A DNA stretch of 64,000 bases from positions 9,564-73,563 of the forward strand of contig DYGT01000004.1 in assembly GCA_020724555.1 (NCBI GenBank), in the 5' to 3' direction. Numbering within the stretch: position 1 is the first letter of the stretch; every line of letters starts with the position of its first letter. A program made the translations under genes and the position numbers. This document shows, in pieces, positions 1 through 47,007 of the stretch. The notes under the pieces were generated by a model. The model made no database searches. It saw nothing but the letters and a program-made list of their open reading frames with translations, and was not told the DNA's origin. Source of the DNA: Candidatus Microgenomatus sp. (lineage in GTDB: Bacteria; Patescibacteriota; Microgenomatia; UBA8517).

Positions 1-1395
1 GCTAAGATAAAGCTGCTTGCGTGGCGGTAAAACCCAACTATTCATATAAACCAAATGGTCCTTGTAAATTTTTAGCTTTTCTTCGCCTTTGGGTTTTTCT
101 AAATCAACCAGCGCTTCAAGTGTAGGTTTTAGCGAAACCCTCCAATAATCACGGTCCCACTTTTCATCCCAATCACCAGCAAAAACATTAAAATACACAT
201 AATGATTGGGGTGGTAAGTTATCATCCACCTCAATTGAATAGAAAATGACAAAAATAAGGCTAATATAGAAACATAAAATAATTTACTTGAATACTTATA
301 TATTTCCTGGAGCAAAAAAGCGTAAAGCAGCATAAGGCTGGGGTAGATAAAGTAAACATGTCGCCAGTCTCCATAAAGAGTTGAATTAAATACAATAATC
401 GCAACATACGAGACAATAATTACAAATAAAGGAAAAATATTATAAGCTCTTTTATACTTTATAACCAAGATAATTGTGGTCAACAATCCCCCTAACCAAC
501 CTGCTAAATAATTAAGCGGTGATGATATCGCAATCCAAACAGGAATATAATAAAACGGCAATTCAGATCCTTTTATCAAATTTCCGTTAAAGATTATCCT
601 ACTATTCCAATCGTCATATTTACTAAACTTTATAAAAGCATTAAATATTCCAACTAGAGGTTGATACCAAAGAAGCGGCCAGATAATATGCAGCAACAAA
701 AGCACCAACACGCCGTAACGCAATATTAATAATAATTTTTTTCTTATATCTATCGGCTTAACAGCTGTCCACAAAACATAAAATACGGGAATAAGCACAC
801 CCATAACCCGAGTATTTATGGCAAGTGCTGTAAATATAGAAAAAGCAAAAAGTCGTCTCTTGCTGGGTTTTTTATCATAAGAAAACATTAAGTAAGTAGC
901 AATAACAAATAAAGATAAAAATAGCGTATCTTTTATGTTATAAAAAGAATGTGCATAAATTCTGGGGTACAGCAAATATAAAATCGATACAAAAACGCTT
1001 ATTTTATCTTTTATGCCAATTAAGCCTAGTAGTTTATAGAAGCAATAGGCTGATACTAAAAACAGAGCATGAAGATATAAGTGTACTAATCTCCAGTAAA
1101 ATAGTGTTTCATGTCCCATCTCATGGGGTAAATATTCCAGCAAAAATAATGGGTATTGAGCCGCAGTTCCATAGTATAGATTCTTAATATCAATTTGCTC
1201 GTCGTATTCGTATGCACTTCTTGGGGCGTAATCTGTAAGACCAAGGAGATCAAAATATAATCCTGCTTGAAAAATTCTTCTGTTACGTTGTCCTGCCTCA
1301 TCTACTGATAAGCCATAATCATCTACGCCAAAAACTCCAATTACCGCAAAAACAATTAAAGTAAATAAGAAAAAATGTTTTTTTATTAGTGTCAT
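1..1395 (-). CDS. Partial CDS (C-terminus beyond left window edge). Polytopic membrane protein with an N-terminal signal/TM segment and an acidic first-loop motif (LSVDEAGQ). Probably another GT-C-like transferase.
   Basis: I translated the minus-strand frame by hand. ATG at 1395..1393 overlaps the TGA of the upstream gene (ATGA). There are no stop codons in 465 codons down to position 1. Translation MTLIKKHFFLFTLIVFAVIGVFGVDDYGLSVDEAGQRNRR... shows many hydrophobic stretches. The ORF track omits it because there is no stop inside the window. Confidence 0.6.
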   Translation of the reverse strand, partial: MTLIKKHFFLFTLIVFAVIGVFGVDDYGLSVDEAGQRNRRIFQAGLYFDLLGLTDYAPRSAYEYDEQIDIKNLYYGTAAQYPLFLLEYLPHEMGHETLFYWRLVHLYLHALFLVSAYCFYKLLGLIGIKDKISVFVSILYLLYPRIYAHSFYNIKDTLFLSLFVIATYLMFSYDKKPSKRRLFAFSIFTALAINTRVMGVLIPVFYVLWTAVKPIDIRKKLLLILRYGVLVLLLLHIIWPLLWYQPLVGIFNAFIKFSKYDDWNSRIIFNGNLIKGSELPFYYIPVWIAISSPLNYLAGWLGGLLTTIILVIKYKRAYNIFPLFVIIVSYVAIIVFNSTLYGDWRHVYFIYPSLMLLYAFLLQEIYKYSSKLFYVSILALFLSFSIQLRWMITYHPNHYVYFNVFAGDWDEKWDRDYWRVSLKPTLEALVDLEKPKGEEKLKIYKDHLVYMNSWVLPPRKQLYLS

Positions 1396-3089
1396 TTATG
1401 CACCAATAACATCTGCCAGGGAAAGATAATTTTGTGTTTTTTGATTTTAAAGCCGTGGCCGGCAATTGCCTTAGCAAAAGACTTTTTATTCCAGGCATTT
1501 ACATGCTCAGGATGTCTGCCTAATCTTTTTACATACTTGCCTCGGAGTAAGCTTACGATACTAAAGCTAGGTTCCCAGGGAACAGTGATAATGATATTAT
1601 TTTTGCCAATTCGTTTAAGTTCATCTAAAGCTTTGCCATAAGCGGGGATATGTTCAAGAATTTCAAGGGCAATAACTAAATCAAACTCTTTGTCTTTAAA
1701 TGGCAATTTGGTGGCATCCGCCTGGATAAACTCAACTTTTGGTAACTGTTTTTTTGCATAAATTAGCGCGGATTTGCTTAAGTCCACTCCAACAGTTTTT
1801 TTAGGCTCATAAACGCTTAAGATATGCTTTAAATCAAACCCTTCACCGCACCCTACCGACACCAGGCTTTTAGGTTTAAGGTCTATAATCTCACGCGCAA
1901 CTGCATCCTGCAATCTTTTTATCAAAAAACGCTGCAGGGGGTTACTGGATGTATGTTTTTTAAGATTAGTGCTACTCTGTTTTTTTGCATGAATTTTTTC
2001 TATAAGCGTCAGGCTTTTTTTTCTACTTTCCTCCCAGCTAAAGAGCTTGCTCCACAAGACCGCATTTTTTGCTAAAGCTTTTAGCTTTTCCGGCTGCTTT
2101 AAAAGCTCAGAAATATCATGAGCCATGGCTTGTGGGGTGTTTTCGGGGACAATAACCCCAGTTTTTTTTGTAACCGAATCAACAAGCCCCGGGGATTTGT
2201 AAGCAACAACCGGTGTGCCCATGGCATTGGCCTCTATATTTACCAGCCCCCAGCCTTCTCGCACCGAGGGATTAATTAAAATGTGCGATTTTGCCAAAAG
2301 TTTGAATTTTTCTTCATTGGAAACAAACCCCCAATAAACAAGCCTTCCTTTAAACTCGCGTTCAGCGCGCTTCAGAAGCTGCAAATATTTGCCTTCACCC
2401 TTCCCAATTATCCAAAATTTATAATTTCCTTTATCTTTTAAAATGTTAAAAACCTCAAGCACATCAAAAATTCCTTTATCCGGAGTAATTGCTCCTAAAA
2501 AAGTAATCGTTGGAATTTTTTCTTTTGAAGGCATTTTTCTGGGCTTTTTGATAATGACTCCATGCGAAATGACATGAATGTTTCGCGCCTGTATTCCCAT
2601 TTTTAATAAATCTTTTTTAGCCGAATCTGAACCTGTGATAAATGGTACTTTTTTATAGAAAGTAAAAATAAAAGGCTCAATTATGTATCCAAGTGTTCCC
2701 ACAATTTGTCTCAAAACAGGCGGTAGAGGTTGCCTGAACCACAGGTCTTTGGCTACTTCTTGGATAACCGCGATCTTAGGTACACGAATGTAGAGTGGTG
2801 TAAAAAACGGTATAAAGTGAAATTGATCAACCACCAAGTCGTATTTCTCTTTTTTGAAAAACAAATACCAAAAAAAGGCAGATACATGAACACCAAGCAG
2901 CTGTCCGCCATGTCTTATTATACGAACGCCGTCTATGGTCTCCTTTTTTGCACCCTTAAAACTTGAAGAAAAAAGAGTCACTTTATGTCCGGCCTCAATC
3001 CATCCCTTCATATGCTCGTGCATGACTTGCTCGGCGCCGCCAGCCAAAGGGTGTTTCGGATCACGCCAGGAGAAACATAAAATATTCAT
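1392..3089 (-). CDS. Bifunctional GT4 (family-1 fold) glycosyltransferase fused to a C-terminal class I SAM-dependent methyltransferase
   Basis: N-terminal GT4 motifs (NILCFSW...GGAEQ; EGWGLVNIEANAMGTPVVA). C-terminal MTase motifs (VLSVGCGEGFD...; DLVIALEILEHIP). Confidence 0.85.
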   Translation of the reverse strand: MNILCFSWRDPKHPLAGGAEQVMHEHMKGWIEAGHKVTLFSSSFKGAKKETIDGVRIIRHGGQLLGVHVSAFFWYLFFKKEKYDLVVDQFHFIPFFTPLYIRVPKIAVIQEVAKDLWFRQPLPPVLRQIVGTLGYIIEPFIFTFYKKVPFITGSDSAKKDLLKMGIQARNIHVISHGVIIKKPRKMPSKEKIPTITFLGAITPDKGIFDVLEVFNILKDKGNYKFWIIGKGEGKYLQLLKRAEREFKGRLVYWGFVSNEEKFKLLAKSHILINPSVREGWGLVNIEANAMGTPVVAYKSPGLVDSVTKKTGVIVPENTPQAMAHDISELLKQPEKLKALAKNAVLWSKLFSWEESRKKSLTLIEKIHAKKQSSTNLKKHTSSNPLQRFLIKRLQDAVAREIIDLKPKSLVSVGCGEGFDLKHILSVYEPKKTVGVDLSKSALIYAKKQLPKVEFIQADATKLPFKDKEFDLVIALEILEHIPAYGKALDELKRIGKNNIIITVPWEPSFSIVSLLRGKYVKRLGRHPEHVNAWNKKSFAKAIAGHGFKIKKHKIIFPWQMLLVHK

Positions 3090-3862
3090 GGGTTAAAAGT
3101 AAGCCAATTTTTTTTATTTTTTTCATCGTAATAATGTTTAATTCTTAGCCTATAAAATACAGCCAATGTATCCCAAAGCATTTTATAAACGGTTTTCCAG
3201 GAAATGGCGCTTGTGGCTTTATTAAAAGTGACTTCAATAGGGGCTTCATAAATCCGGTCAAAACCCAAGTATTTCGCAACCGCCAGCATTTCTATGTCCA
3301 TCGCATAGTCTTTTACCAAAAGCCTGGGCAAAATCGCATCAACCACTTCTCGTTTAAATATTTTTATCCCGCTTTGGGTATCGCTTAAGGGTAAACTAAA
3401 AAAAATACGTATCAGTAAATGGTACCCCATACTGTACAGTTTTCTTTTAAAAGGGTAATTCACGCGCGAAACGGGGTGCCTTTTGGACCCGACAACGATA
3501 TCGGCCTTATACCACTCCATATGAGCCATCAGCATCATAATGCCTTTAGGGCTTATGTCCATGCCCGCATCTAAAAACGAAATTAGCTCACCCTTTGCGT
3601 ATTTCATCCCTGTCCGCACCGCATACCCTTTACCATGATTGTCGCCGTAGCTTTTAACTTTGAGTTTTTTTGATCTTACTTTTTTTGCTTCAGTTTCGGT
3701 TTTATCCAGCTGCCCGTCAACCACACAAATAATTTCATAGTCATAAATAGCAGGTAAACCTTCGTCTAAAACAGATATAATATTTTCCAAATCCCGTTTT
3801 ATGGTTTTTTCCTGTTTGTAAGCAGGTACTACTATGGAAATAATTTGTTTATCTTTTGCCAT
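3086..3862 (-). CDS. GT2 polyprenyl-phosphate sugar synthase (DPM1/GtrB-like)
   Basis: ISIVVPAYKQE...; VVDGQLDKT; NHGKGYAVRTGM; DAGMD. 258 aa with no membrane domain. Confidence 0.75.
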   Translation of the reverse strand: MAKDKQIISIVVPAYKQEKTIKRDLENIISVLDEGLPAIYDYEIICVVDGQLDKTETEAKKVRSKKLKVKSYGDNHGKGYAVRTGMKYAKGELISFLDAGMDISPKGIMMLMAHMEWYKADIVVGSKRHPVSRVNYPFKRKLYSMGYHLLIRIFFSLPLSDTQSGIKIFKREVVDAILPRLLVKDYAMDIEMLAVAKYLGFDRIYEAPIEVTFNKATSAISWKTVYKMLWDTLAVFYRLRIKHYYDEKNKKNWLTFNP

Positions 3863-5093
3863 TTTTAAAATACGTAAAACTCATTAAGTATAATACTTGC
3901 CCGACAAACAAAACGAGCATTGCAATAAGCGACACTTGAATAACCTGAAGCAAGCTTTGGTGCCACAAAAAAATCCCACTAATCTGAAAAATTAAAATTA
4001 AGGCCGGCAATATCACCGATTTAGTCTTCCCTATTGATAGCATAAAATTCGCCAAATAATAGTCCAGAGTATAAAACGACAAAAATAGGCCCATCCAAAA
4101 GAGCTCGCTTGCGGCGGATAAATATTCCTCGCCGTACAAAAGACCTATAGCTATATCGGGTAAAAAATAGTATGTACCCACAACAAAAATAGATAAAAGC
4201 GCCGTTGCCGTGAATGTTAAATAAAACACTTGTTTAAAAGATTCTCCTTTTGCTTTTTTTCCCGAAACCAAAGGAAACATAACCATGCTGACAGGGCTTG
4301 CCGCAAAAAATATTATTTTACCCAAAGTAGAAAGGGCGGCATAAAGGCCCGCGTCATGCGGAGGAAAAAAATGTTTTACCAATATTAAATCCAGTGAAAA
4401 GAAGGCCGTAAACGCAAGGGCTTGCACAAGGGCTGGTGCAGAAAAATTTAAAAAATCTTTTAAGTCCCGGCCCGATTTTGGTTCTACAACTTCCTGTTTT
4501 ATATATATACGCGAAAACAAATAAGTAAGAGCCGTTGCCAAGGCAAGGCCTCCGATTGCACCAAAAGCGGCAAAACCAGCCAAAACCAATAATACTCCGA
4601 TTATGAGTTTACCCAAGGATGCAACTAAATTTATATTTACATATGCCCCGAAACGAAGAATTCCCTGCATTATGGATTGGTTGAGCATGGTGTTTAAACT
4701 GAAATATAAAATAGGGGCCAGTAAAACAACTATCCAAAAATTGCCAAGGTGCAAAAAATTATTAATAACGGGACTCAATAAAACAAGAATTATTGACATA
4801 TAAATTGCCAGATTGTTTATAATCTTTTTTAGACTTCCGTATAACAGCGCCAATTCCTTTTTGTCCTTACTCTCGGAGGAAAACTTAACTATGCCCACAC
4901 CCGCCGATTGAGGTACGATTGCAATCAAATAATAAAGAGAAAACATACTGGCAAGAACAGCATACTCACTTGGGCCTAAAATACGCCCCATTATTAAGTG
5001 GTAAAAATAGTTAATAACATTTATGGCGGTGCTGCCTGCAACCATTATCAAGCTGCCTGCGATTGTTTTGTTATTTTTCAGTTTTTCCTTCAT
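3849..5093 (-). CDS. PST/MOP-family flippase (Wzx/MurJ-like polysaccharide biosynthesis protein)
   Basis: 414 aa, about 12 hydrophobic segments. N-terminus GSLIMVAGSTAINVINYFYHLIMGRILGPSEYAVLASMFSL is typical of Polysacc_synt proteins. Confidence 0.6.
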   Translation of the reverse strand: MKEKLKNNKTIAGSLIMVAGSTAINVINYFYHLIMGRILGPSEYAVLASMFSLYYLIAIVPQSAGVGIVKFSSESKDKKELALLYGSLKKIINNLAIYMSIILVLLSPVINNFLHLGNFWIVVLLAPILYFSLNTMLNQSIMQGILRFGAYVNINLVASLGKLIIGVLLVLAGFAAFGAIGGLALATALTYLFSRIYIKQEVVEPKSGRDLKDFLNFSAPALVQALAFTAFFSLDLILVKHFFPPHDAGLYAALSTLGKIIFFAASPVSMVMFPLVSGKKAKGESFKQVFYLTFTATALLSIFVVGTYYFLPDIAIGLLYGEEYLSAASELFWMGLFLSFYTLDYYLANFMLSIGKTKSVILPALILIFQISGIFLWHQSLLQVIQVSLIAMLVLFVGQVLYLMSFTYFKNGKR

Positions 5094-6214
5094 GATATCC
5101 AGTAGCCGCGCGAAAACATGGACGTAGCCAAAATTAAACTTCCTAATGATACGCCGGCCAATACATACTTTACAATTTTTGGCAATCTGTTGGCAATATT
5201 TGCCATTAAGATAAATCCGGGAAACAAAACCAGAACGTATCTTGGAAGAGACGAAAAACTACCGGACAGTGTGGGCACTAAAAACCCCAAAAAAAGGTAA
5301 ATCCAATAACTAAGCCTTAATTTAAAATAGCCAAAAACCACTAAAATTAAAAATAAGACAGCAGTAAAAAGCTCTAGAAATGTTGTAAAAATTACAGGCC
5401 AATAAAAACTAAGCGCGGGAATAATTTTAAATAGATAGCGGTAAAATACCTGCGGCAGCATTACAAAACTCGCTGAGCGCTGGTTGCCATAAATCTCTAC
5501 TTTATGGATAAAAACCAGTGGATCACCGGTTTCCGAATATAAATACCAAAGATAAACTAGTAACCCCAATGCCATGACAAGGAGATATCCAAATAAACTG
5601 ACAGCTCTTTTGATATTAAAACTGTGCTTATACTGCACTAGCCATTCCACGGCAATTGAAACAATAAGCACTACGCCAATAACACGTGTGGCCGCGGCAG
5701 CCGAGACCAATAAGCTGGCAATCAAAAATTTATTTTTCCTTGCAAAGTAAAATGACCAGACGACAAACAGCAAAAACAAACTTTCTGTATAAACCGCAGC
5801 AAAATAAAATGAAGTTGGAAAAATTAAAAGTATGGTCAAAACAAAAAGAGGGTTATGGCCATCCAATTTCAATAGCTTATGTAAACCCCATACAGCCAAA
5901 AATAAACTGATGTGGGAAATAAAAATTCCGCTGATTAAATAACCCGCCAAATCAGTAGCCCAAAAACTAAAATACCTTATAAACAAGGGGTAGACCGGAA
6001 AGAAAAAATGCCGAAGCGGCCTGTAGCCTTCTTTAGCAATTGCCAAATAATGCTCTCCGTCAAAATTTGCATGCCACCAAAATTGAGGGTTATCTTGATA
6101 GTAAGTCACACCACCACCTAAAAAATTATTTTGTAAAACCAAAAAAGTTCCAAAATATACGGCAATTATTAATAAAAGTCTCCAGCCGATAATCATTAAT
6201 ATACTTTTATTCAT
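5090..6214 (-). CDS. Polytopic membrane protein, family D. PIG-V/Gpi18-like (GT76-type) GT-C mannosyltransferase candidate.
   Basis: Loop motif WHANFDGEHYLAIAKEGYRPLRHFFFPVYP resembles the conserved D-x-E-H-F-x-x-I-A-x-x-G-Y region of PIG-V-type mannosyltransferases (from memory). It is a paralog of 55020..56207. Confidence 0.5.
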   Translation of the reverse strand: MNKSILMIIGWRLLLIIAVYFGTFLVLQNNFLGGGVTYYQDNPQFWWHANFDGEHYLAIAKEGYRPLRHFFFPVYPLFIRYFSFWATDLAGYLISGIFISHISLFLAVWGLHKLLKLDGHNPLFVLTILLIFPTSFYFAAVYTESLFLLFVVWSFYFARKNKFLIASLLVSAAAATRVIGVVLIVSIAVEWLVQYKHSFNIKRAVSLFGYLLVMALGLLVYLWYLYSETGDPLVFIHKVEIYGNQRSASFVMLPQVFYRYLFKIIPALSFYWPVIFTTFLELFTAVLFLILVVFGYFKLRLSYWIYLFLGFLVPTLSGSFSSLPRYVLVLFPGFILMANIANRLPKIVKYVLAGVSLGSLILATSMFSRGYWIS

Positions 6215-7284
6215 TGAAGCGCTTTTTTATAAACTTTTATAGTTTCTAGTGCTGTTTTGTCCCAACTAAAATTTTTCAGTCGTTTTGATCCTTCCCTTAT
6301 CATGCTTTCTCTTAGACCTTGGTCATTTAAAAGGCTTTCAATTTTATTTATTAAATCGTCAATGTCTAAAGGTTTAAAATAAACGGCTCCTTTTTCCAAA
6401 ACCTCAACCATAGCTTGGGTTTGGGAAGCCACAACCGGGACATCACAAGCCAAAGCCTGAAGCGGAGGCAGCCCGAACCCTTCATAAAGCGAAGGTTGGC
6501 AATAGATACTCGCCAGATTATATATACCGACCAAGTCCGCGTTTTCCACAAATCCCAAAGTACTAACATGCTTTGATTCAAATAATTTTGCTAAGCTTTG
6601 GTAATGGGCAAGCTCCGGATGGGTTTGGCCTGATAAGCTACGAACGACATCTCTTATTCCTTTTCCCTTAAAATTCGCAATTGCATGATTAATATTCCCT
6701 GCACTTTTCCCTACAATAACAAGATGGGTCTTATTTTTTATACATGCGCGCGTTAATAATTCTATATTTTTGTTGTAATTAATGTCCCCCACATATAGCA
6801 CAAATTTATCGGGTAAATTATATTTATCTTTTATGGCCTTTAGTTTTTCTTTATCACCCACTTTTTTGTAAATCGGGTCGAAAGCCAAATATATAGGCAC
6901 TATTTTATCTTCCGGTACGTCAAGAAAACGGATTATATCTTTCTTGCTGGTTTCTGAATCTGTAATAACAAACTTAACTTTTTTAAGAGAATTTATTTGC
7001 TTTTTTAAATTTATCTTGCCTCTGATTCCCGGTTTATAATGCTTTGGGTATAAAAGCGGGATGACGTCGTGTATGGTAACTACAACTGGTTTTGAAAAAT
7101 TATCAGGAAGTGTATGAAAAAACAAATCAAAATAGGTATAATGAAGGACATCAAAAGAACCGTCCTCAACTAAGGTGACACTTTGGGTATTTTTTAAAGC
7201 TTCACAAAGTAGCCGCGTATATTCCCCGATACCACGTACCGCATGCCCACCCATCAAAGGGGTGTTGTCTATTTTAATTTTCAT
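6211..7284 (-). CDS. GT4 glycosyltransferase (Glycos_transf_1)
   Basis: C-terminal motif YCQPSLYEGFGLPPLQALACDVPVVAS. Confidence 0.85.
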   Translation of the reverse strand: MKIKIDNTPLMGGHAVRGIGEYTRLLCEALKNTQSVTLVEDGSFDVLHYTYFDLFFHTLPDNFSKPVVVTIHDVIPLLYPKHYKPGIRGKINLKKQINSLKKVKFVITDSETSKKDIIRFLDVPEDKIVPIYLAFDPIYKKVGDKEKLKAIKDKYNLPDKFVLYVGDINYNKNIELLTRACIKNKTHLVIVGKSAGNINHAIANFKGKGIRDVVRSLSGQTHPELAHYQSLAKLFESKHVSTLGFVENADLVGIYNLASIYCQPSLYEGFGLPPLQALACDVPVVASQTQAMVEVLEKGAVYFKPLDIDDLINKIESLLNDQGLRESMIREGSKRLKNFSWDKTALETIKVYKKALQ

Positions 7285-8034
7285 TTACAAAAGATTATAT
7301 CCTCCGTCTACAACTAAAAGTTCTCCGGTTATGGCGTCTGCTTCACTGGAAGCTAAAAACAAAAAAGCGTTTGCTATATCTTGTGGCTCTACCAAACGGC
7401 GAAGATAGCTATCCTCTAGCGCTTTATTGCGCGTTTCCTCGTCCCACACTGCACTTATGTCTGTATTAGCCGGACCGGGCGCAATGCCGTTAACTTTTAT
7501 AGTTGGAGCCAATTCTTTGGCCAGTGTAGTTGTAAAGTTGTAAAGTGCCGCTTTTGAGGCACTATAAGCGATGTTGCCCTGTCTGCCCGCATGATAAAGC
7601 GAGCGTACCGAGCAGGTATTCAAAATCTTGCCCCCTCCACGCTCAAGCATTATCCGTGCCGCTTCCTGTGCACACAAAAATGGGCCATAAAGGTTTGTTT
7701 TCATGGTTTCATCCCAGTCTGAAACAGTAAGTTCAAAAAAAGGCTTAGGCCTATCAATGCCTGCATTATTAACCAATACATCAAGCCCGCCAAATTCACC
7801 TACTGTTCGCTCAAACATGGCTTTTATCTCCTGGGGAACAGAAACATCGGCTTGGACTAAAATAGCCTGACCACCTGAATTTTTAATGGCAGAAACCACT
7901 TCTTCTCCCTCACTCACGTTTGCTCGGCAATTTACTACTACCTTGGCGCCTTCTCTGGCAAAGGTAAGAGCGGTAGCGCGGCCGATTCCCCGGGAAGACC
8001 CGGTTATGACTGCGATTTTTCCTTCAAGGCGCAT
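7285..8034 (-). CDS. Short-chain dehydrogenase/reductase (SDR) family oxidoreductase
   Basis: TGSSRGIG Rossmann motif, NNAG, and a YxxxK catalytic dyad (YSASKAA). Confidence 0.9.
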   Translation of the reverse strand: MRLEGKIAVITGSSRGIGRATALTFAREGAKVVVNCRANVSEGEEVVSAIKNSGGQAILVQADVSVPQEIKAMFERTVGEFGGLDVLVNNAGIDRPKPFFELTVSDWDETMKTNLYGPFLCAQEAARIMLERGGGKILNTCSVRSLYHAGRQGNIAYSASKAALYNFTTTLAKELAPTIKVNGIAPGPANTDISAVWDEETRNKALEDSYLRRLVEPQDIANAFLFLASSEADAITGELLVVDGGYNLL

Positions 8035-8051
8035 AATTCATTTTAAACACT

Positions 8052-8915
8052 TTAGCCCTCATTAATCCAGTGCTTATAAAAAGCCAGAGGGTAATGGAAC
8101 GAGGAAAAGACACACCAGACAAAGCCGCGAAGCCCGTCTTTATATCCGCGGTGGCGAAAATACATCTTTACAAATGTCAGTCCTGGTTTTAAAAACGTAT
8201 AGCTAAGTAAATTTTTATAATTTTTGCCTACACCACTGGCTGAAATATCTTTTGCGTGCTCCGAAGTATAGCGGTTTAGACGCATTAGGTAACGCCTGAG
8301 AGTGGGAGATTCGAAGTGCTCAAGATCGCTAAACAGCCAGGCAACCTTTCCCTTAACAACCATTTGTTCGTGCACATTTTTGGCAGGCAAATAAGCTTTA
8401 TTTTTTTTGACCAACCTGATGACTGCATCCGGGTATACTCCCCCGTGAATTAAAGGCTTTCCCAGAAAATAATTTTTACGGGGAATAAAAAAACCGGCGA
8501 CATCTCCTTTTCCAGCGGTCATACCACCACGACGCCTCAGTGCATTCTCATGGCGCTTAAACAACTTCCATTTGTTTTTATCATCAGGCCGACGACTTAT
8601 AATTTCTTTATCTACTAAATTTATAACCTCAACAATCTCCCGGGACAAATCCGGGCTCACCCGCTCATCGGCATCAAGTTGCAAAATCCAGTCACCACGG
8701 GCTTTTTCAATCGCCAATTGTTTACTTTCATGAAAATTGTTTATGTGCTTATTTTTAAACACTTTTGCACCCATCATCCTGGCAATTTCAGGGGTTTTGT
8801 CTGTGGAATATTCATCAACCACAATTATTTCATCGGCTATGCCACGCACAGATAAAAGGCAATCTTTGATGTTTGCTTCTTCGTTTTTTGTTGCCAGTAC
8901 AACGCTTAGTTTCAT
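8052..8915 (-). CDS. GT2 glycosyltransferase (WaaE/KdtX-like subfamily)
   Basis: LSVVLATKNEEANI; ADEIIVVDEYSTDKTPEIA; LQLDADE. Same subfamily as 27162..27941 and 27941..28837. Confidence 0.8.
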   Translation of the reverse strand: MKLSVVLATKNEEANIKDCLLSVRGIADEIIVVDEYSTDKTPEIARMMGAKVFKNKHINNFHESKQLAIEKARGDWILQLDADERVSPDLSREIVEVINLVDKEIISRRPDDKNKWKLFKRHENALRRRGGMTAGKGDVAGFFIPRKNYFLGKPLIHGGVYPDAVIRLVKKNKAYLPAKNVHEQMVVKGKVAWLFSDLEHFESPTLRRYLMRLNRYTSEHAKDISASGVGKNYKNLLSYTFLKPGLTFVKMYFRHRGYKDGLRGFVWCVFSSFHYPLAFYKHWINEG

Positions 8916-8918
8916 AAT

Positions 8919-10562
8919 TTAATTGGCGACTATCTGAAATGCTATTTCGCCACTAGGAAAATAAATCTCATAAACGACATTTGTTTCATCCGGAATTTCT
9001 TCATCTGTACCAATTATAAGGCTGTCCGGATTTTGGCGCGCAAGCTTGTAAAAATCTATTGCAACAAATCTGTATTTTGAATATGCGTCAACAGTGGAAA
9101 AACCGAATTCGTCTGCCTTTGTAAGCGTGTGATCTGCTTGAAAAAGTTCGGGCGGATACTTAGTGTAATACAACATAAGTATGTACGGCTGGTCGTAACG
9201 CGTGGTGATGAAAACTTTTTCAAACTTGTGCTCTTCTTGGACAACATAATCTGCCATTTGAGAAAATCCGTATTGCGAAGAATAAGGATATTCCTTGGGC
9301 AGATGTTTGTAATACATTATTAAATACCTGACGACGGAAAGGCAAAGAGAGAATATGATAAGCGAAAATAGTGTATACTTCATATAATTTTTTTGCTTTT
9401 TGGCAAAAATTAATATCTGCGATAATCCAAAACCACTAAAAATTGCCATGGGTATGACCATGTTTTGCGCCCGCAGAGCATGTGGAGACTGAAACGTAAA
9501 AGCCGCAGCCGCAGGAGATATCAATAGCCACCAAAAAACAAATCCCCATCCTTTAAATTTCTTGGCTATTTGCGACCCGGCAACGAGGATAAACACAATC
9601 TCCACTAGATATAAAAGCCCTGTTTCAGGGACTTTATTGCGCTGTATCTCATCTCCTGAAATAAACAAAAATTCACCTTTGTAGTGCTTTCCCCAATTTG
9701 AAAGAAATTTCATCGTATACTCAAGGGGTTTATTGTGAAAGGCTTTGGCGCTTATACCTCCAATATCCTGATGTTGGCCTCTAAGCTCATTAATGCGGTT
9801 AATAATTCCAGGGTCTGCCGTAATTCCCACTCCACCAGCGCGAGACAAACCCCCACCTATGAGTAACGAATAAATAAGCGGCAACGCCAAAACAATGCCA
9901 ATTGCAAGCGAGGCTATAAACGTTTTGGCGTTTCTTTTTATATAGGACCGGTTAAAAAACAAAAGGCCCAAACCTAAAAGAGGCGCAACAACCAAAGAGG
10001 CATGATAAATATATAAAGAAATTACAAAAGCTATAATCGAAAAAAAATAATATTTAGGTTTTTTTGTGGCATTTAAAAACAATAAAACGCCCAGCAACAT
10101 AAAAAACGTCGCAACATTCACTTCCCAGGCGCCGCGGGAAAAATGGATATGCCACGGGGAAATTGCAAGCATTAATGCCGCCGAAAGTGAAAAATACTCC
10201 TTTTTTTCTTCTTGCAGATTGCCAAACCAATTTTTTACCAACAATGCAATTAAAAATATGCTTAAACTTCCCAAAAAAATGGAAACAAATCTGATGCTTA
10301 ATGCATTTAAGCCAAATAAATAGACAAAGGGTAAAATCAGATAAACGTATCCGCCGGGCTTATAATCATTAAAAGACTGAAAATGTATCGGCCAGGCATT
10401 TCCATGCTCGTCTTTTCCGGTTTGGATTAAAGAATAGGCGTTGTATCCCAAAGCCGCCTCGTCCGCATTTATTGGAGGTAAAGTCGCGGACTTACATAGT
10501 CTTAAAATAAGACCAAGCAAGAAAATTAATAATAATAATAAATAATACTTATTCTGTTTCAT
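8919..10562 (-). CDS. GT39/PMT/ArnT-like GT-C membrane glycosyltransferase, family A paralog A1
   Basis: NADEAALGYNAYSLIQTGKDEHG first-loop DE motif, then FNDYKPGGYVYL. Central AFHNK...FLFISGD. Late LISPAAAAF..SPHALRA. 547 aa, polytopic. Confidence 0.75.
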   Translation of the reverse strand: MKQNKYYLLLLLIFLLGLILRLCKSATLPPINADEAALGYNAYSLIQTGKDEHGNAWPIHFQSFNDYKPGGYVYLILPFVYLFGLNALSIRFVSIFLGSLSIFLIALLVKNWFGNLQEEKKEYFSLSAALMLAISPWHIHFSRGAWEVNVATFFMLLGVLLFLNATKKPKYYFFSIIAFVISLYIYHASLVVAPLLGLGLLFFNRSYIKRNAKTFIASLAIGIVLALPLIYSLLIGGGLSRAGGVGITADPGIINRINELRGQHQDIGGISAKAFHNKPLEYTMKFLSNWGKHYKGEFLFISGDEIQRNKVPETGLLYLVEIVFILVAGSQIAKKFKGWGFVFWWLLISPAAAAFTFQSPHALRAQNMVIPMAIFSGFGLSQILIFAKKQKNYMKYTLFSLIIFSLCLSVVRYLIMYYKHLPKEYPYSSQYGFSQMADYVVQEEHKFEKVFITTRYDQPYILMLYYTKYPPELFQADHTLTKADEFGFSTVDAYSKYRFVAIDFYKLARQNPDSLIIGTDEEIPDETNVVYEIYFPSGEIAFQIVAN

Positions 10563-12210
10563 TGACTTTTAATACATAAAATGCGGCTGTACCGTCCGGA
10601 TAATCGATTTCTTTGCTTAAACTAAGCTTGGGTATTTGTGAAATTTTATCTAAAGGCAGGGTAACTGCACTAACAATTAAATATGAATTGTCCGTAGCAT
10701 ATATTTCCCCCCAATTAAGATCCTGAAAGTAAACATTGCCTACTTTTTCAACTAAACCTACGTCCGCATTTCCACTTTCTTTAAATGAATTAGCGTTTTG
10801 GTACTCCAGAGGGTCGTATTGGCTATAAAATAAATAATAAATATAGGGCTGGTTATACGACTGCTCAACAAAAACGGTGCTATCATCCGCAATTTTATCT
10901 ATTTCTAAAGCCATTTGTTTATATCCATAGCCCCACTGTCGGGCTTGAAGCTCTGGCAAGTGGACAAATTCCGCTTCGACAAACAACAAAAAAGAAACTA
11001 TGTATGAAAAAATCAATATAACCAGAGCTTTTTTACTAAATTTTTCATAAAGTGAGGCTACACCTAAGGCAGCCAAAATAATTAAGGGTACGGATAAATA
11101 TAAGGCTCTCACGGCATGGACTTGGTCGCGCGACAGGGCAGCCGGTAATGGTGCCAGTAATAACCAAAGCAAAACAAGCGCTCGGTTTTTATCAAACCTT
11201 CGGAATAAATAAAATAATCCCACGGGTATAGTTACGATGCTTGCCAGAAGCATCATGCCATGGTATGGAGGGCTATGTCTGGGGTTTTGCCAATCACCTG
11301 TAAAAAACAAAAAATCGGTTGAATAGTGATTAAAGTAGCGCCCCAATATTCCGCGCAAAAAATTATATGGTTCGGAATAAAACAGATAATAAGCCGTACT
11401 GCCCACTTTTACATTTGCCTGAGATATAAAAGCATCGCGGTACTGGCTTGGCCGGGGATAAGAAAAAACGCTGAAAACAGATAGCCGGCCGGTCTGGCCT
11501 TTAAAAAATGACATAGCCACCGGCAGCAAAAATATTAATCCAGTAATTATTGATATTAATAAGTACTTAAATCTTATTTTAATAAATTGCTGATAAAAAA
11601 GTGCCAAAAGAAAAATTAGTAAAAACAAACTCATGAATTTGGCGCCTTGATAAGTCCACAACGTCAATCCAAAAGCAATAGCCGAAAAGATTAAATATTT
11701 GTTCTTATTTAGGGCTATGAGGAAAAAATATACAGCCATTATTGTCAACAGCAAAGCAATATTTACTTCCCAAGCGCCGCGGGAAAAATGAACCGACCAG
11801 GGATTTATCGCAAGCAGAAGTGAAGAAATATACGCCGTTTTTTGCCCAAAAAGTTTTTTCATTAACAAATACATAAAGAGCACGGACAGCGTCCCACCTA
11901 AAACACTCGGTAAACGAACAGCAACTTCGGTTAAGCCAAGAAAAGCAACAAACGGAATTGTCAGATATACATATAGACCGGGCTTATAATCTCCAAATGA
12001 TTTGAAGATAACCGGTAAAAGTGCTCCGTGCTCATCGCGCCCGGTTTTTAATATGGAATACGCATTATATCCCAAAGCCGCCTCGTCCGCAGTTAAACTT
12101 GGAGGGTTACTACCAATATCATAAAACCTGATTATAAATGCCGCAGTTAAAATTGCGGCCATGGTTGCTATATTTTTATTCTTCATATATTTCATAGGCA
12201 ACATCCCCAT
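10549..12210 (-). CDS. GT39/PMT/ArnT-like GT-C membrane glycosyltransferase, family A paralog A2. The true start is probably an internal Met, which removes the 35-nt overlap with A3.
   Basis: TADEAALGYNAYSILKTGRDEHG; FGDYKPGLYVYL; FLFFTGDWQNPRHSP; LLAPLPAALSRDQVHAVRA. Confidence 0.75.
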   Translation of the reverse strand: MGMLPMKYMKNKNIATMAAILTAAFIIRFYDIGSNPPSLTADEAALGYNAYSILKTGRDEHGALLPVIFKSFGDYKPGLYVYLTIPFVAFLGLTEVAVRLPSVLGGTLSVLFMYLLMKKLFGQKTAYISSLLLAINPWSVHFSRGAWEVNIALLLTIMAVYFFLIALNKNKYLIFSAIAFGLTLWTYQGAKFMSLFLLIFLLALFYQQFIKIRFKYLLISIITGLIFLLPVAMSFFKGQTGRLSVFSVFSYPRPSQYRDAFISQANVKVGSTAYYLFYSEPYNFLRGILGRYFNHYSTDFLFFTGDWQNPRHSPPYHGMMLLASIVTIPVGLFYLFRRFDKNRALVLLWLLLAPLPAALSRDQVHAVRALYLSVPLIILAALGVASLYEKFSKKALVILIFSYIVSFLLFVEAEFVHLPELQARQWGYGYKQMALEIDKIADDSTVFVEQSYNQPYIYYLFYSQYDPLEYQNANSFKESGNADVGLVEKVGNVYFQDLNWGEIYATDNSYLIVSAVTLPLDKISQIPKLSLSKEIDYPDGTAAFYVLKVNETE

Positions 12211-13846
12211 TCAGAAAATAGATTTCGTCTATTTTATCCCAATCCGAAGGGGCATTACCCGCACTGGTTATCAACAAACAACGCGCCTCCCCGCAATCAA
12301 CCAAATCTCCGCTTTCCAGGTAAAAACTATACTGAGGGCCTTTTACAATTTCCCAATCGTTTAAAAAATAAAATTTGTCAAAGCTATCAACCCAGTACCA
12401 ATTTGATTGGTAAAAGCGCTTTAAATTTTCATCATTTCTATAATCTGCGGGGTCCCATGGCCAATAAAATAAAATAAACTCGTGTGGCTCGCCGTATTTT
12501 TTTGTAACCAAAAACTTATCATAGTTTTCATATCTATTTTTTATATAGTCAACAAGTTGTTTTGTTCCGTATTGCCAGCTCCACGAATAATTATTCCTGT
12601 ATTCGCCCGTATAATAATTGATATAGGCTGCATAACTTAATAATAAAATCGCTAAATATAAAGCCAAAAAAACATATTTATAAAAAATTACTTTTATCTT
12701 ATCCAAGATATGCTTTAACCCAGATGCGATAAAAACAACAGCAGCTGGCGCCATGATTAGACTCCTTAATGCATGGGGCGACTCGCGGGTTACACTTGCC
12801 GCCAGTGGTGCGAGCAATAACCACGACAAAAAAAGTATTTGCCATTTTTTGCGCTCACGCAAGGAAGCTAAAACGCCCCAATAAAAGGTAAGGACATGCA
12901 CAAAAGATAAAAGCCCAACTCCCGGCAGGCTAAATTGGTAATGACCGGAACCCCTAAAAAACAAAAATCTTGGGTCAAAATGAGAAATATAATTATTAAT
13001 AAATCTGGGGACAAAATAAGTTACGCGATTATATATGAAGCGAGTTATAAGCGGAGAATAGTTTGTATTTTGGCGCAATAAACCAATTTCATAAAGTGCA
13101 TTATCGTTAATAATAGCAACCAACCCATATCTGGCTTGGCCCTGAGGCATTATTAACTGATAAATCATTGGAAGAAAAAACAAAGAAAGCACTAATAAAG
13201 ACAGCAATAAATTAATTTTAGTAAAATTCTTAAACAATTCTTTTTTGTAAAGAATTAGCAAACCGGTAACAAAAAGAGGCGTAAAAACCCGTGCAGTATT
13301 ATAAGTCCAAACCGAAAGACCGAAAAACAGAAAACTAAACATTAAATTGGCGGTTTTGCCCTCTTTTGCTCTAAAGAAAAAAAAGACTGCTGCTAAAACA
13401 AAAAAATTGGCCAGATTTGCCTCCAGAGCGGCTCTTGAAACCAGCACAGTCCAAGACTCAAGTGCCATAAACAGAGCAGCAAAAACAGAAATTTTTTCGT
13501 CTTTTGTAACTTTTTTTATTAAAAAATAAATAAGAATCACCGAAGCCGTCCCCGCCAAAACAGACGGAAGCCGCACGGACCACGCATTCAAACCCAAAAG
13601 CCAGACAAAAGGCACGGTCGTATAGATGTATGCCGGAAGCTTATAATCCCCATATGCTCTAAAAATCAGAGGAAAACTTTTTCCCCACTCGTCTTTACCT
13701 GTTTTTAAAATTGAGTATGCATTATAACCATGGCTTACCTCGTCCCAATTTAGTGCTGGCGGATTGGTTGATAAACCGATTAATCTTACGAGAGCAGCTA
13801 TTATAAAAATGGCAACAAAAAAATATTTATAGATATATGTCTGCAT
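12176..13846 (-). CDS. GT39/PMT/ArnT-like GT-C membrane glycosyltransferase, family A paralog A3
   Basis: NWDEVSHGYNAYSILKTGKDEWG; YGDYKLPAYIY; FLFFRGSGHY; LLAPLAASVTRESPHALRS. Confidence 0.75.
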   Translation of the reverse strand: MQTYIYKYFFVAIFIIAALVRLIGLSTNPPALNWDEVSHGYNAYSILKTGKDEWGKSFPLIFRAYGDYKLPAYIYTTVPFVWLLGLNAWSVRLPSVLAGTASVILIYFLIKKVTKDEKISVFAALFMALESWTVLVSRAALEANLANFFVLAAVFFFFRAKEGKTANLMFSFLFFGLSVWTYNTARVFTPLFVTGLLILYKKELFKNFTKINLLLSLLVLSLFFLPMIYQLIMPQGQARYGLVAIINDNALYEIGLLRQNTNYSPLITRFIYNRVTYFVPRFINNYISHFDPRFLFFRGSGHYQFSLPGVGLLSFVHVLTFYWGVLASLRERKKWQILFLSWLLLAPLAASVTRESPHALRSLIMAPAAVVFIASGLKHILDKIKVIFYKYVFLALYLAILLLSYAAYINYYTGEYRNNYSWSWQYGTKQLVDYIKNRYENYDKFLVTKKYGEPHEFILFYWPWDPADYRNDENLKRFYQSNWYWVDSFDKFYFLNDWEIVKGPQYSFYLESGDLVDCGEARCLLITSAGNAPSDWDKIDEIYFLNGDVAYEIYEE

Positions 13847-15505
13847 TTAAGGTAAAGCTTGATAAGCAAAAGGCAAAGTATCGGGGTTTACTATCCAAAA
13901 AGCATCGGATAAATCGGGGTATTTTACGACATGGATAACGGGAGCATCCGGCGGAAATTCCTCCGGCCGGCCCACCAACAAAACAGAAGATAAAGCTTTA
14001 TATTTTGGATAATCCATGCTTGTAAAAACGTATTTACCCAGCCTGTACTCAGGCATTTGGTCTACCCATTTAACCCCCAGTTCACGATAATTCCAGTCTT
14101 TTACCGCATTTTGATAAACTGACGGATCTAAACGAGAATAAAAAGCATAATAAATATGCGCTTCTGATAATGATTTGGAAATAATAATTTGCTCGTATGG
14201 TTTGTCTATTTCATTTAAGTAAGTAAAAATATCTTCTGCTCCATAAAGCATAGCGCGGGCAGTTGTGTATTTTTGCTGAATAAAATATTTTTCAGCAAAA
14301 AACACTAAAGACAGTAAATATAAAGCCAAAACACATTTTGTAAATACGGCTTTCTTACGGCGAGACATGATCTCATAAATATTATTCCAACCCACTGCAA
14401 GTAAAATCGACAGCGCCGGAAGCATAATAATCGCGCGGTTGGCGGCATATCCCGGCCCACGCGACAAGGCCGCCGGAATCGGGGCGGTTAATAGCCAAAA
14501 CACAAGCCAGGGAGCTTTTTTAAGCTCTTTTATATTAATAAAAATACCAACAATAAACAGAAGTTCCAGTAAATACAAAACACCCACTCCTGGCATCATC
14601 CCGTATGTTCCCTCACCGGCTCCGCTGGAAAACAAAAATTGCGGTGAAAAATATTGAAAGTATTGATCCAAAAAAGTTTTTCCCAAAACCAAAAATCTGT
14701 TATTAAATAAACGCGCCCAAGTAAGGGGCAAACCGGCCAGCATTGCGTTAAACCTTGCATCTGCCGGAGGTTTGGTATCTAGGATTGTACTCGTCGCCAG
14801 ACGGTCTCCTGCCCCTTTAAACATACTTACCAAAGCGAGTATAAAAAAGGCAGCAAAAACCAAAAGAAAGATTAAAAAATTTCTATTCTTTAAATGATTT
14901 TGCCAATTTTTAGGATTAAATTTATATATGATTAAAAATCCCAAAACAAGAGGAGTTATAAGTCTTGCGGAATGGTAAGTAAAAAGATTCAAGCCCAAAA
15001 AGAACCCGGATAAAGCCGCCTGTTTTTTGGATTTCGTTATGCCCCAAAAAAAATAAATACCGGCTGTTAAAAAAAAGGTCGTGAGATTAGCCTCAAACGC
15101 CCCTCTGCTCATGGCAATGTGCCAAGGGGATATAGCCAAGATAAATGCCGCCATTAATGCTATTTTTTCGCTACCAAAACTGCGTTTTGTCAACAAATAA
15201 GTAAAATAGGTAGCGCCAACGCCCAAAAGTGCCACCGGCAAGCGGACGGCAAATTCGCTCAAACCAAAGATCAATACGCTGGGAATAGCCAGATATGCCA
15301 AAAGTGGCATTTTTCCGTCGCCAAAAGATTGAAGCACTATCGGGAATTTATTCCCCCATTGATCTTTGCCGGTTTTTAGTATGCTATAAGCATCATAACC
15401 AAACGATGCTTCATCGGGAGTAAAACCAAAAGGATAGTCAGATAAACCAATTAATCTAATAAAAGCAGAAATGGTTAAAATTAAAACCAATAATTTATTT
15501 CCCAT
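13847..15505 (-). CDS. GT39/PMT/ArnT-like GT-C membrane glycosyltransferase, family A paralog A4
   Basis: TPDEASFGYDAYSILKTGKDQWG; FSPQFLFSSGAGEG; LTAPIPAALSRGPGYAANRA. Its stop directly abuts the A3 start. Confidence 0.75.
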   Translation of the reverse strand: MGNKLLVLILTISAFIRLIGLSDYPFGFTPDEASFGYDAYSILKTGKDQWGNKFPIVLQSFGDGKMPLLAYLAIPSVLIFGLSEFAVRLPVALLGVGATYFTYLLTKRSFGSEKIALMAAFILAISPWHIAMSRGAFEANLTTFFLTAGIYFFWGITKSKKQAALSGFFLGLNLFTYHSARLITPLVLGFLIIYKFNPKNWQNHLKNRNFLIFLLVFAAFFILALVSMFKGAGDRLATSTILDTKPPADARFNAMLAGLPLTWARLFNNRFLVLGKTFLDQYFQYFSPQFLFSSGAGEGTYGMMPGVGVLYLLELLFIVGIFINIKELKKAPWLVFWLLTAPIPAALSRGPGYAANRAIIMLPALSILLAVGWNNIYEIMSRRKKAVFTKCVLALYLLSLVFFAEKYFIQQKYTTARAMLYGAEDIFTYLNEIDKPYEQIIISKSLSEAHIYYAFYSRLDPSVYQNAVKDWNYRELGVKWVDQMPEYRLGKYVFTSMDYPKYKALSSVLLVGRPEEFPPDAPVIHVVKYPDLSDAFWIVNPDTLPFAYQALP

Positions 15506-15526
15506 TATTTTATTATAACGATATAT

Positions 15527-17206: not shown

Positions 17207-17796
17207 ACCTTAGCCGGCAGCAAATAAAGATAATCGTGCAAAAACCGTAAGTATTCATAAATAAAAATCATAAGTAAAAACAAAACAACTTTAGGTTTTA
17301 TTTTGATAAGCCTTGCCAAACCTACCCCGGCTAAGGTGCACAATATAAATAATGCGGGCAGTCTAACAAAAGTATTATATTCATGGGCGATAAAACCGGC
17401 CGGGAGTAATGAAACTATAAGACATATAAAAGTCAGTAAACGCAATTTATTGTTTAAATAGTAAATACCCGCCAACATCAAAGGTAAATAAGATAAATAC
17501 AAACAGCCCGCAATTATCGCTCCGGAAAAAAATAAGTAATGAGGCTCAAAAGTGTTGCCAATGCGAATAAGTATCATTCTTCCTCTATAAGTCACTTTGT
17601 TGGCAAAAAGCCTGGCCACAAAATTGGGCATTCCTGCCTCAAACAATAAGCCACGATTGTTGTTTATAGTTTCCCGGGCTACACGGTCTGAAACAGTAAT
17701 TGTTTCACCTGGCGAAAAGTCTTTCTGGCCTAAAGTAAAAAGAGCAGCAGGAGATAATATAAATAAAAATATTGCTGCTGTAATAATATTTTTCAT
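17203..17796 (-). CDS. Half-size family A derivative (197 aa). It matches only the central loop and following TM region of the GT39-like paralogs and lacks the catalytic DE N-terminus. It is either a truncated paralog/pseudogene remnant or an accessory subunit.
   Basis: ARLFANKVTYRGRMILIRIGNTFEPHYLFFSG aligns with A6 RLFHNKFTYWGDMIVNNYLDSFSLDFLFYEGD. SLLPAGFIAHEYNTFVRLPALFIL aligns with the APIPAAxTRD region. It has a signal-peptide-like N-terminus and ATGA overlaps at both ends. Confidence 0.55.
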   Translation of the reverse strand: MKNIITAAIFLFILSPAALFTLGQKDFSPGETITVSDRVARETINNNRGLLFEAGMPNFVARLFANKVTYRGRMILIRIGNTFEPHYLFFSGAIIAGCLYLSYLPLMLAGIYYLNNKLRLLTFICLIVSLLPAGFIAHEYNTFVRLPALFILCTLAGVGLARLIKIKPKVVLFLLMIFIYEYLRFLHDYLYLLPAKV

Positions 17797-28837: not shown

Positions 28838-28868
28838 AATTTGATTTTATCACGCTGGCAACATTTAT

Positions 28869-35965: not shown

Positions 35966-36015
35966 TTGATAATTGTATCATCCGGTTTGATGTAAAATAA
36001 ATCTAGTTTAAAATA

Positions 36016-46926: not shown

Positions 46927-47007
46927 TACTCTAAATTGTAGCGCAAACGAAGTTATTTAAAAATTGCATCTTTTTATTTTTTTTGTTTTTCTGGTCTAAA
47001 CGCTTTA

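Follow-up and report, generated by a model that had tools for sequence, protein, structure and literature searches.

Two anciently diverged GT-C glycosyltransferases in a Microgenomates glycosylation island, one related to the N-terminal half of PIG-V

A 64-kb stretch of DNA from Candidatus Microgenomatus sp. (GCA_020724555.1, contig DYGT01000004.1, positions 9,564 to 73,563 of the forward strand), referred to here as the window, carries two membrane-protein genes, D1 and D2, which an initial annotation had described as two copies of a eukaryote-style, GT76-type mannosyltransferase family resembling PIG-V/Gpi18. We found that the two are anciently diverged paralogs of a small GT-C glycosyltransferase family (~375-395 aa, ~11 transmembrane helices) in Microgenomates/Woesebacteria-type bacteria of the candidate phyla radiation (CPR). 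Judged by sequence comparison, the bacterial family of D1 lies at the border of PF04188 and shares homology with the catalytic half of PIG-V, and D2 is tied to PIG-V only transitively, through D1. Both proteins probably act as outer-face transferases that use a polyprenyl-phosphate-linked sugar (polyprenyl-P-sugar) for a membrane-proximal glycan, and not in the synthesis of glycosylphosphatidylinositol (GPI).

Paralogy, fold and topology of D1 and D2

The two genes and their loop motifs are as follows.

5090..6214, minus strand: D1, 374 aa, ~11 transmembrane helices, GT-C glycosyltransferase of a PIG-V-like (PF04188-borderline) family
6023..6061, minus strand: catalytic-loop motif of D1, DGEHYLAIAKEGY (D52-x-E54-H55-Y56), in the first extracytoplasmic loop, located by regular expression
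55020..56207, plus strand: D2, 395 aa, GT-C glycosyltransferase, distant paralog of D1
55200..55238, plus strand: loop motif of D2, DGPLYIAVAKTLY (D61-G62-P63), second acidic residue absent, located by regular expression

Both open reading frames (ORFs) were confirmed at the coordinates first annotated, with D1, whose strand had not been given, on the minus strand and D2 on the plus strand. The loop motif and the proline-rich segment said to be common to both were also borne out. When the strict pattern DG(E/P)(H/L)Y(L/I)A(I/V)AKxxY was searched in six reading frames over the whole window, it matched at D1 and D2 only, and the proline-rich hydrophobic stretch behind it is FFPVYPLF in D1 and HFPLFPLL in D2. 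Within the motif, the D2 loop reads D61-G-P63-L-Y, with P-L where D1 has E-H. The true start of D2 is probably the ATG at 55053 (M12), giving ~384 aa, because its homologs are 383-386 aa long, covering 97% of D2, and the listed start lies only 16 nt from that of a divergent GT2 gene.

Homologs of each protein were collected and aligned in sets of 48 sequences, A1 for D1 and A2 for D2. In A1, D52 and G53 are invariant, with E54 and H55 conserved to at least 90%; in A2, D61, G62 and P63 are invariant. Direct BLASTP comparison of D1 with D2 gave 23% identity over 156 aa (E 9e-6), the D1-family hidden Markov model (HMM) matched D2 at E 2.6e-14, and the two family profiles aligned with 99% probability (E 7.5e-18) over 297 columns, essentially the full length. 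Among the window ORFs of at least 100 aa, the A1 and A2 HMMs found D1 and D2 alone, which argues that the window has exactly two copies and that these are genuine but ancient paralogs.

The AlphaFold2 models are confident, with a predicted local distance difference test (pLDDT) of 91.5 and a predicted TM-score (pTM) of 0.92 for D1, built on A1, and 87.3 and 0.88 for D2, built on A2. About 11 transmembrane helices were assigned from these models, neither of which has a soluble extracytoplasmic domain. The density of K+R is 25-27% in the predicted inside loops versus 7-8% in the outside loops, and this positive-inside count puts the motif loop outside: the predicted topology is N-in, with the long, motif-bearing first loop on the outer face, where it would be expected in a GT-C enzyme. 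Further conserved polar motifs of D1 (Y142/E144, D231, Q245/R246 and GSFSSLPRY) are placed on the outer face as well. A Foldseek search of the PDB returned lists topped entirely by GT-C enzymes for both models (all of the top 38 for D2), among them STT3, PglB, ArnT, ALG3/6/9/12, PMT, DPY19, Emb/Aft, GPI-MT1, PimE and the GT-C-like PIG-U, with TM-scores normalised to the query of ~0.45-0.54 and E-values of ~1e-3. The models, the Foldseek lists and the positive-inside topology place both proteins in the fold of the GT-C superfamily (Pfam clan CL0111).

Relationship of D1 and D2 to PIG-V

The human PIGV query used here was validated against PF04188 and a database PIGV; it scored 710.6 bits over the full PF04188 model, and the closest database sequence, 97% identical, was a primate 'GPI mannosyltransferase 2'. 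Against this single sequence the D1 profile reached 94.3% probability (E 9.9e-8), and against a profile of 22 vertebrate PIG-V sequences (A3) it reached 97.3% (E 2.2e-11) over 192 columns, with D1 residues 2-186 aligned to PIGV residues 6-212, which is the N-terminal half only. In this profile-profile alignment NFDGEHYLAIAKEGY of D1 stands in register with WDAEHFLFIAEHGY of PIG-V, and NFDGEHYLAIAKEGY likewise with HWDAEHFLFIAEHGY of PIGV. Specifically, D1 N50-F-D-G-E-H-Y-L-A-I-A-K-E-G-Y64 lies over human PIGV W66-D-A-E-H-F-L-F-I-A-E-H-G-Y79, with D52-G-E54-H55-Y56 on D67-A-E69-H70-F71, and the segments FFPVYPL/FFPGFPL and YTESLF/YSEALF (D1/PIGV) are further pairs in register. The PIG-V motif given in the initial annotation was accurate in this respect. 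According to published analysis (PMC6056205), the first luminal loop of PIG-V bears a D/E-x-E signature with an aromatic residue behind it; D1 carries this signature in its first outside loop and D2 does not.

PF04188 itself scored above threshold in 12 of the 48 aligned D1-family sequences, which gives D1 a transitive membership. Ten of these, individually rescanned, scored 25.7-41.4 bits versus a gathering score of 22.4 bits, and the matches span profile positions ~44-250 of 443, starting at ~44-53, that is, at the motif loop. Neither D1 nor D2 gave a direct PF04188/GT76 match even at E<=10, and a plain HMM built from the 22 vertebrate PIG-V sequences matched none of the window ORFs, D1 and D2 included. 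The link to PIG-V was detected only by profile-profile comparison and by Pfam's broader model on orthologs. The HMM search suggested at the outset was thus positive for relatives of D1 and negative for the two proteins themselves, and D1 shows both the PF04188 similarity and a motif in register with the PIG-V loop.

The homology does not extend to the whole protein. In profile-profile (HH) comparison with the C-terminal half of PIG-V, the C-terminal halves of D1 and D2 reached 0.15% and 0.18%, and an extension of the homology to these halves, with a possible H..R[FY] motif, was rejected on these values. Since D1 has no PF04188 match of its own and its N-terminal half alone aligns, its membership of GT76 appears borderline. 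For D2, none of the 48 family sequences matched PF04188, and its profile gave no significant match to the single PIGV (0.13%) or to the vertebrate profile (20%); even so, the motif stays in register in the weak alignment. The description as two PIG-V/Gpi18-like copies of GT76 type is therefore half right: it stands for D1, at the level of homology and for the N-terminal half, with GT76 borderline, but it does not stand for D2, which fails every direct PIG-V test and has D-G-P-L in its loop.

Could the resemblance be an artefact of hydrophobic composition joined to a chance short motif, with D1 and D2 being generic polytopic membrane proteins? The missing direct Pfam match of D1, the vertebrate PIG-V HMM that misses both proteins and the Foldseek E-values of only ~1e-3 would fit such an explanation, to which we give a negligible probability. 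When the D1 profile was compared with two PMT_2-type GT-C proteins of the window, which have the same composition and belong to the same clan, the probabilities were 0.16% and 1.05% against 97.3% for PIG-V, so the signal is not hydrophobic bias, and chance or composition was rejected on these controls. In addition, what anchors the alignment is a polar loop whose D and G are invariant and whose E and H are at least 90% conserved, the 12 aligned family sequences match Pfam independently, and all top structural matches are GT-C.

The opposite explanation takes D1 as a true PIG-V/Gpi18 (GT76) orthologue, which would transfer alpha-1,6-mannose from polyprenyl-P-mannose onto a mannosyl-glucosaminyl-inositol lipid and imply a GPI-like anchor in CPR bacteria. 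The D-x-E-H-aromatic loop, FFPxxPL and Y(S/T)E(A/S)LF in register speak for it, as do the orthologs that pass the PF04188 threshold and a GT2 of the surrounding gene island that resembles dolichol-phosphate-mannose synthase (DPMS) and carries a GtrA/DPMS transmembrane domain. However, the homology is limited to the N-terminal half, the C-terminal halves being unrelated by HH; D1 is 120 aa shorter than PIGV and is missed by the plain PIG-V HMM; and the GT4s and Wzx of its operon are of the kind typical for polysaccharide pathways of bacteria. The window proteins scanned, which did not take in several ORFs, yielded no PIG-A/L/W/M-like or inositol-lipid gene. We regard orthology as very improbable and conclude that D1 is not a GPI mannosyltransferase; it shares ancestry with PIG-V and probably also the chemistry of the catalytic loop.

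There is a slim chance that the Microgenomates D1 family is the bacterial sister of the eukaryotic GPI mannosyltransferase II and has retained the PIG-V catalytic loop, building, together with the DPMS-like GT2 and Wzx, a membrane-anchored GPI-like or phosphatidylinositol-mannoside (PIM)-like glycolipid at the outer face of the CPR cell membrane. If this were true, the lumenal mannosylation steps of GPI-anchor synthesis would have a prokaryotic model and perhaps an evolutionary source. A more immediate use follows from the homology itself. Since no solved PIG-V structure was found in the PDB by Foldseek or by sequence-profile search, the D1 family, as a compact and well-modelled bacterial relative, could serve as a tractable surrogate, structural and biochemical, for the PIG-V catalytic loop. 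Mutations of PIGV cause Mabry syndrome.

The term 'eukaryote-style' proved overstated. Searching with the D1 profile among 50%-identity cluster representatives gave 15,866 at E<=1e-3, 11,298 at E<=1e-10 and 2,527 at E<=1e-30. In JGI, many members of both families already bear the name 'Gpi18-like mannosyltransferase', in NCBI some relatives are called 'mannosyltransferase family protein' or 'glycosyltransferase family 39 protein', and GT76 entries are present in the CAZy tables of bacterial genomes. D1 and D2 form an uncharacterised bacterial branch of a known superfamily, and as the label is already public, their assignment is confirmatory and not surprising.

A D1-like domain also occurs at the C-terminal end of much longer relatives (P0415, 980 aa; P0474, 946 aa; P0460, 606 aa). 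The N-terminal part of P0415 is a PTPS_related (GT-C-like) membrane module, making it a tandem GT-C fusion, and the other fusions gave no Pfam match; as a functional hint for D1 these proteins were uninformative.

Gene neighbourhoods and the glycosylation island

D1 is flanked by the following genes.

6211..7284, minus strand: GT4, Pfam Glycos_transf_1 5.2e-29, stop overlapping the D1 start by 4 nt
3849..5093, minus strand: Wzx-type (MOP) flippase, Pfam Polysacc_synt_3 8.6e-17, start overlapping the D1 stop by 4 nt
3086..3862, minus strand: soluble GT2 resembling polyprenyl-phosphate-sugar synthases, Pfam GT2, NCBIfam PgfS/PpgS-like
1392..3089, minus strand: GT4 fused to an S-adenosylmethionine (SAM)-methyltransferase, last gene of the D1 operon, 565 aa, assigned by Pfam

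The minus-strand run of GT4, D1, Wzx, GT2 and GT4-methyltransferase is translationally coupled, with start/stop overlaps of 4 to 14 nt, and upstream of it lie an SDR gene, another GT2 and PMT_2-type GT-C genes. The position of D1 next to a flippase and a GtrB-like synthase, as first annotated, was correct. Among solved structures, the GT2 at 3086..3862 comes closest to Pyrococcus PfDPMS (5mlz, 2.6e-13), GtrB (5ekp) and ArnC, and from this similarity it is the probable maker of the lipid-linked donor for D1. The last gene of the operon comprises a GT4 domain (residues ~17-354) and a SAM-dependent methyltransferase domain (residues ~386-549), a fusion that suggests a methylated sugar in the operon product. 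In loci L003 and L004, the GT4 and the methyltransferase are each encoded by a gene of their own.

We surveyed 80 GTDB-representative loci, which came from Woesebacteria, Microgenomates, Blackburnbacteria, Daviesbacteria and unnamed Patescibacteria. The gene immediately upstream of the D1 ortholog is a GT4 homolog in 72 of 75 genomes and the one immediately downstream a Wzx homolog in 49 of 73; a GT2 homolog follows within 3 kb downstream in 56 of 71, and homologs of the GT4-methyltransferase are found 2-5 kb downstream in most D1 loci. The gene order of the operon is the same on two long contigs (L001, L003), where the D1 orthologs are 47-49% identical. Many metagenome-assembled genomes with D1 orthologs (L007, L008, L012 and many more) carry the title 'uncultured Gammaproteobacteria bacterium isolate binchicken_...'. 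In gene content and in their closest named relatives they are Woesebacteria/Microgenomates, and the titles look like placeholders or wrong taxonomy.

The neighbourhood invites another reading of D1, namely a Wzy-like polymerase or WaaL-like ligase that serves the adjacent Wzx and acts on flipped polyprenyl-PP-oligosaccharide units. D1 does fill the slot beside Wzx, and its operon has many cytoplasmic GT4/GT2 enzymes but no other obvious polymerase gene. Against this, none of the 96 members of the D1 and D2 families matched a Wzy or O-antigen-ligase Pfam at E<=0.01, the D1 family hitting the GT-C clan only, and the top Foldseek matches of D1 are classical GT-C, not WaaL or SEDS, with no Wzy or ligase fold among the PDB matches listed for either protein. 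The specific homology of D1 to PIG-V, a user of dolichyl-phosphate-mannose, and the conserved company of a DPMS/GtrB-like GT2 also argue against it, and we consider a polymerase or ligase unlikely.

Around D2, three genes are relevant.

54278..55003, minus strand: GT2 resembling polyprenyl-phosphate-sugar synthases, Pfam GT2 1.8e-35, divergent from D2
56450..57313, minus strand: 287-aa protein of no known family, between D2 and the GT2-GtrA gene
57339..58544, minus strand: GT2 fused to a GtrA/DPMS transmembrane domain, Pfam GT2 plus GtrA_DPMS_TM, archaeal-DPMS-like architecture

The best solved relatives of the divergent GT2 are ArnC (9bhc, 4.3e-16), PfDPMS and GtrB, over residues 4-229 of 241. 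The GT2-GtrA gene sits 1.1 kb from D2, a position kept in loci L005 and L006, and the whole order recurs there: PMT_2, DHH, PMT_2, GT2; D2; the 287-aa-type protein and GT2-GtrA. The 287-aa protein matched nothing in Pfam or NCBIfam, but it is a conserved partner of the D2 locus, with counterparts of 295 aa in L005 and 287 aa in L006 at the same position, likewise without a Pfam match. In GCA_040961665.1 the D1 and D2 orthologs lie ~52 kb apart, as in the window. Between the convergent D2 and 287-aa genes there is a 240-nt gap (56208..56449), which contains part of a 75-codon ORF (56254..56481); this ORF was rejected as a GacJ-like membrane activator, since it and its positional counterparts in L005 and L006 are neither similar in sequence nor hydrophobic. 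Rfam found no RNA in the gap or elsewhere in the window. A DHH/DHHA1 phosphoesterase gene (51751..52749, minus strand) lies between two PMT_2 GT-C genes, and this PMT_2-DHH-PMT_2 arrangement is repeated in L005 and L006.

Nearly the whole window (1392..60205) is one glycosylation island, with 38% GC, no tRNA and genes almost all on the minus strand. Its GT-C genes comprise nine paralogous ~550-aa PMT_2/ArnT-like proteins, four more PMT_2 proteins, three PTPS_related/PMT_2-like proteins, one PMT/PMT_2 protein, one YfhO, and D1 and D2. Overall, at least 20 GT-C genes, nine GT2s, three GT4s and two Wzx flippases are packed into 64 kb. Related genomes have contigs of ~0.8-0.9 Mb, so the island makes up a large share of a tiny genome.

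Several large ORFs (31976..33658, 58547..60205, 17793..19037, 44094..45362 and 36016..36837) gave no Pfam or NCBIfam match; some are visibly hydrophobic, and examples of 560 aa and 552 aa match the size of the GT-C paralogs. These ORFs may encode polymerases or additional GT-C enzymes that have diverged. A 315-aa protein (49337..50284, minus strand) weakly matches the Pfam MATCAP family, at 28.4 bits against a cutoff of 27 bits. MATCAP is a microtubule-associated tyrosine carboxypeptidase, metallopeptidase-like, and is unexpected inside a glycosylation island. The island is flanked by a gene for a CAP/SCP-domain protein of the cysteine-rich secretory protein family (62377..63330, minus strand) and one for an RmlA-like sugar-nucleotidyl transferase (60855..61577, minus strand), which trmD (60212..60895) adjoins; the RmlA-like enzyme may supply activated sugar to the cluster.

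Proposed role and comparison with known systems

From the fold, paralogy, motif conservation, topology, synteny and N-terminal homology of D1 to PIG-V, all of them observed, we infer a donor, a sugar, an acceptor and a linkage along the following lines. At the cytoplasmic face, the adjacent soluble GT2 (3086..3862 for D1, 54278..55003 for D2) would charge polyprenyl phosphate with the sugar of a nucleotide-sugar. Next, this lipid-linked sugar, and/or a lipid-linked oligosaccharide that the flanking GT4s assemble, would be flipped outward, by the Wzx beside D1 or by the GtrA-type module 1.1 kb from D2. Finally, the GT-C would transfer the sugar to its acceptor by means of the invariant Asp in the first outside loop (D52 in D1, D61 in D2), which in D1 belongs to the PIG-V-type D-x-E-H-aromatic motif. 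The acceptor, the least certain step, would be membrane-proximal, a lipid-linked glycan or glycolipid, because D1 and D2 have no soluble outside domain, as is the case for PIG-V, PimE and the ALG enzymes, whose acceptors are lipid-linked.

Several points weigh against this proposal. D1 has zero Pfam matches even at E<=10, and its family profile found nothing in the PDB by sequence at E<=10. The window proteins scanned, with ~13 ORFs of at least 150 aa placed by BLASTP paralogy alone or outside the scan, include no priming phosphoglycosyltransferase, and no small GacJ-like membrane partner was found. Wzx flippases usually move polyprenyl-PP-oligosaccharides, and D1 could act on or with such a substrate. 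The step from a missing soluble domain to a lipid-linked acceptor goes by analogy, and the identity of the sugar and the acceptor cannot be read from sequence. We found no biochemical or genetic paper on bacterial PF04188, COG5542 or 'Gpi18-like' proteins.

The same chemistry and the same gene neighbourhood would serve equally if D1 (and D2) moved the sugar of a polyprenyl-P-sugar onto a protein, as in PMT-like O-glycosylation, or onto a cell-wall polymer in the manner of GacL, GtlB or YfhO, and known bacterial GT-A/flippase/GT-C systems do decorate teichoic acids and wall polysaccharides. Pfam PMT_2 (PF13231) is matched by 11 of the 48 D1-family and 16 of the 48 D2-family sequences; D2 itself scores 20.9 bits, under the threshold of 26.1 bits, and D1 has no match, so that neither is a member. 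NCBIfam NF046093 ('cell surface glycopolymer formation') weakly matches D2 at 44.6 bits and D1 at 22.6 bits, in both cases from the loop to transmembrane helix 6, with a cutoff of 150 bits. Yet neither protein has an outside soluble domain to bind a polymer or protein, the ~16 PMT_2-type GT-Cs of the island (~500-580 aa) are better candidates for such a task, and the HH comparison of D1 with PMT_2 proteins of the window was insignificant. We judge a protein or wall-polymer acceptor not very likely. If the membrane-proximal transfer proposed above is true, this very densely packed glycosylation island has, in D1 and D2, two more GT-C transferases working at the outer face. It illustrates how large a part of a reduced CPR genome is given to surface glycans, which probably matter for an episymbiotic lifestyle.

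Among known families, the PMT_2/ArnT-like GT-Cs (PF13231; GT39/GT83) share the clan and the fold of D1 and D2, and ArnT (5f15) is among the best structural matches (query-normalised TM-score 0.54). However, D1 and D2 are ~150 aa shorter than the ~16 paralogs of the island and have no counterpart of their C-terminal extracytoplasmic part. The NF046093 family, of the AZOBR_p60025 cell surface glycopolymer formation protein, is matched by D1 and D2 far under its cutoff, and no literature on the AZOBR_p60025 family was found.

PimE (GT87, PF09594), the mycobacterial polyprenyl-P-mannose-dependent PIM mannosyltransferase, is like D1 and D2 a small GT-C (~380-430 aa) with no soluble domain, and it acts on a membrane glycolipid. 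Foldseek aligned D2 to PimE (9dm5) with TM-scores of 0.48/0.49. The GT87 HMM matched 7 of the 48 D1-family sequences (best 28.4 bits, cutoff 25) and 1 of the 48 D2-family sequences, with no match to D1 and D2 themselves. The D1-family GT87 matches differ in that they start past the catalytic loop, from residue ~87 on, leaving the PIG-V-type motif outside them; the D1-family PMT_2 matches also begin after the motif loop.

PIG-V/Gpi18 (GPI mannosyltransferase II; GT76; PF04188, Mannosyl_trans2) resembles D1 in its GT-C fold, its N-in orientation and the absence of a large soluble domain, as well as in FFPxxPL, Y(S/T)E(A/S)LF and the homologous N-terminal ~190 residues. The differences are the length (493 aa in PIGV, 374 aa in D1), the C-terminal halves without detectable similarity, the bacterial origin of D1 with its polysaccharide-type operon of GT4s and Wzx, and, for D2, a motif without E-H.

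A parallel in gene logic is offered by the multi-component transmembrane glycosylation systems, namely GacI/GacK/GacL of S. pyogenes, GtrA/B/C, CsbB/GtcA/YfhO and GtlA/GtlB. In these systems a GT-A enzyme makes a C55-phosphate-linked sugar, a flippase carries it across, and a GT-C whose outside loop bears an acidic motif transfers it. D1 and D2 fall outside the YfhO, GacL and GtrC sequence families, no small GacJ-like activator was found, and the D1 operon adds GT4s and a methyltransferase. The combination of a soluble GT-A, a Wzx flippase and a GT-C, as in GacI/GacK/GacL, is an established variant (PMC8035078). Synthase-like GT2s predicted to have the GT-A fold adjoin both D1 and D2, and flippases of Wzx and GtrA type are associated with them. 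Because this gene logic fits, D1 and D2 can be viewed as the outer-face transferases of two such systems.

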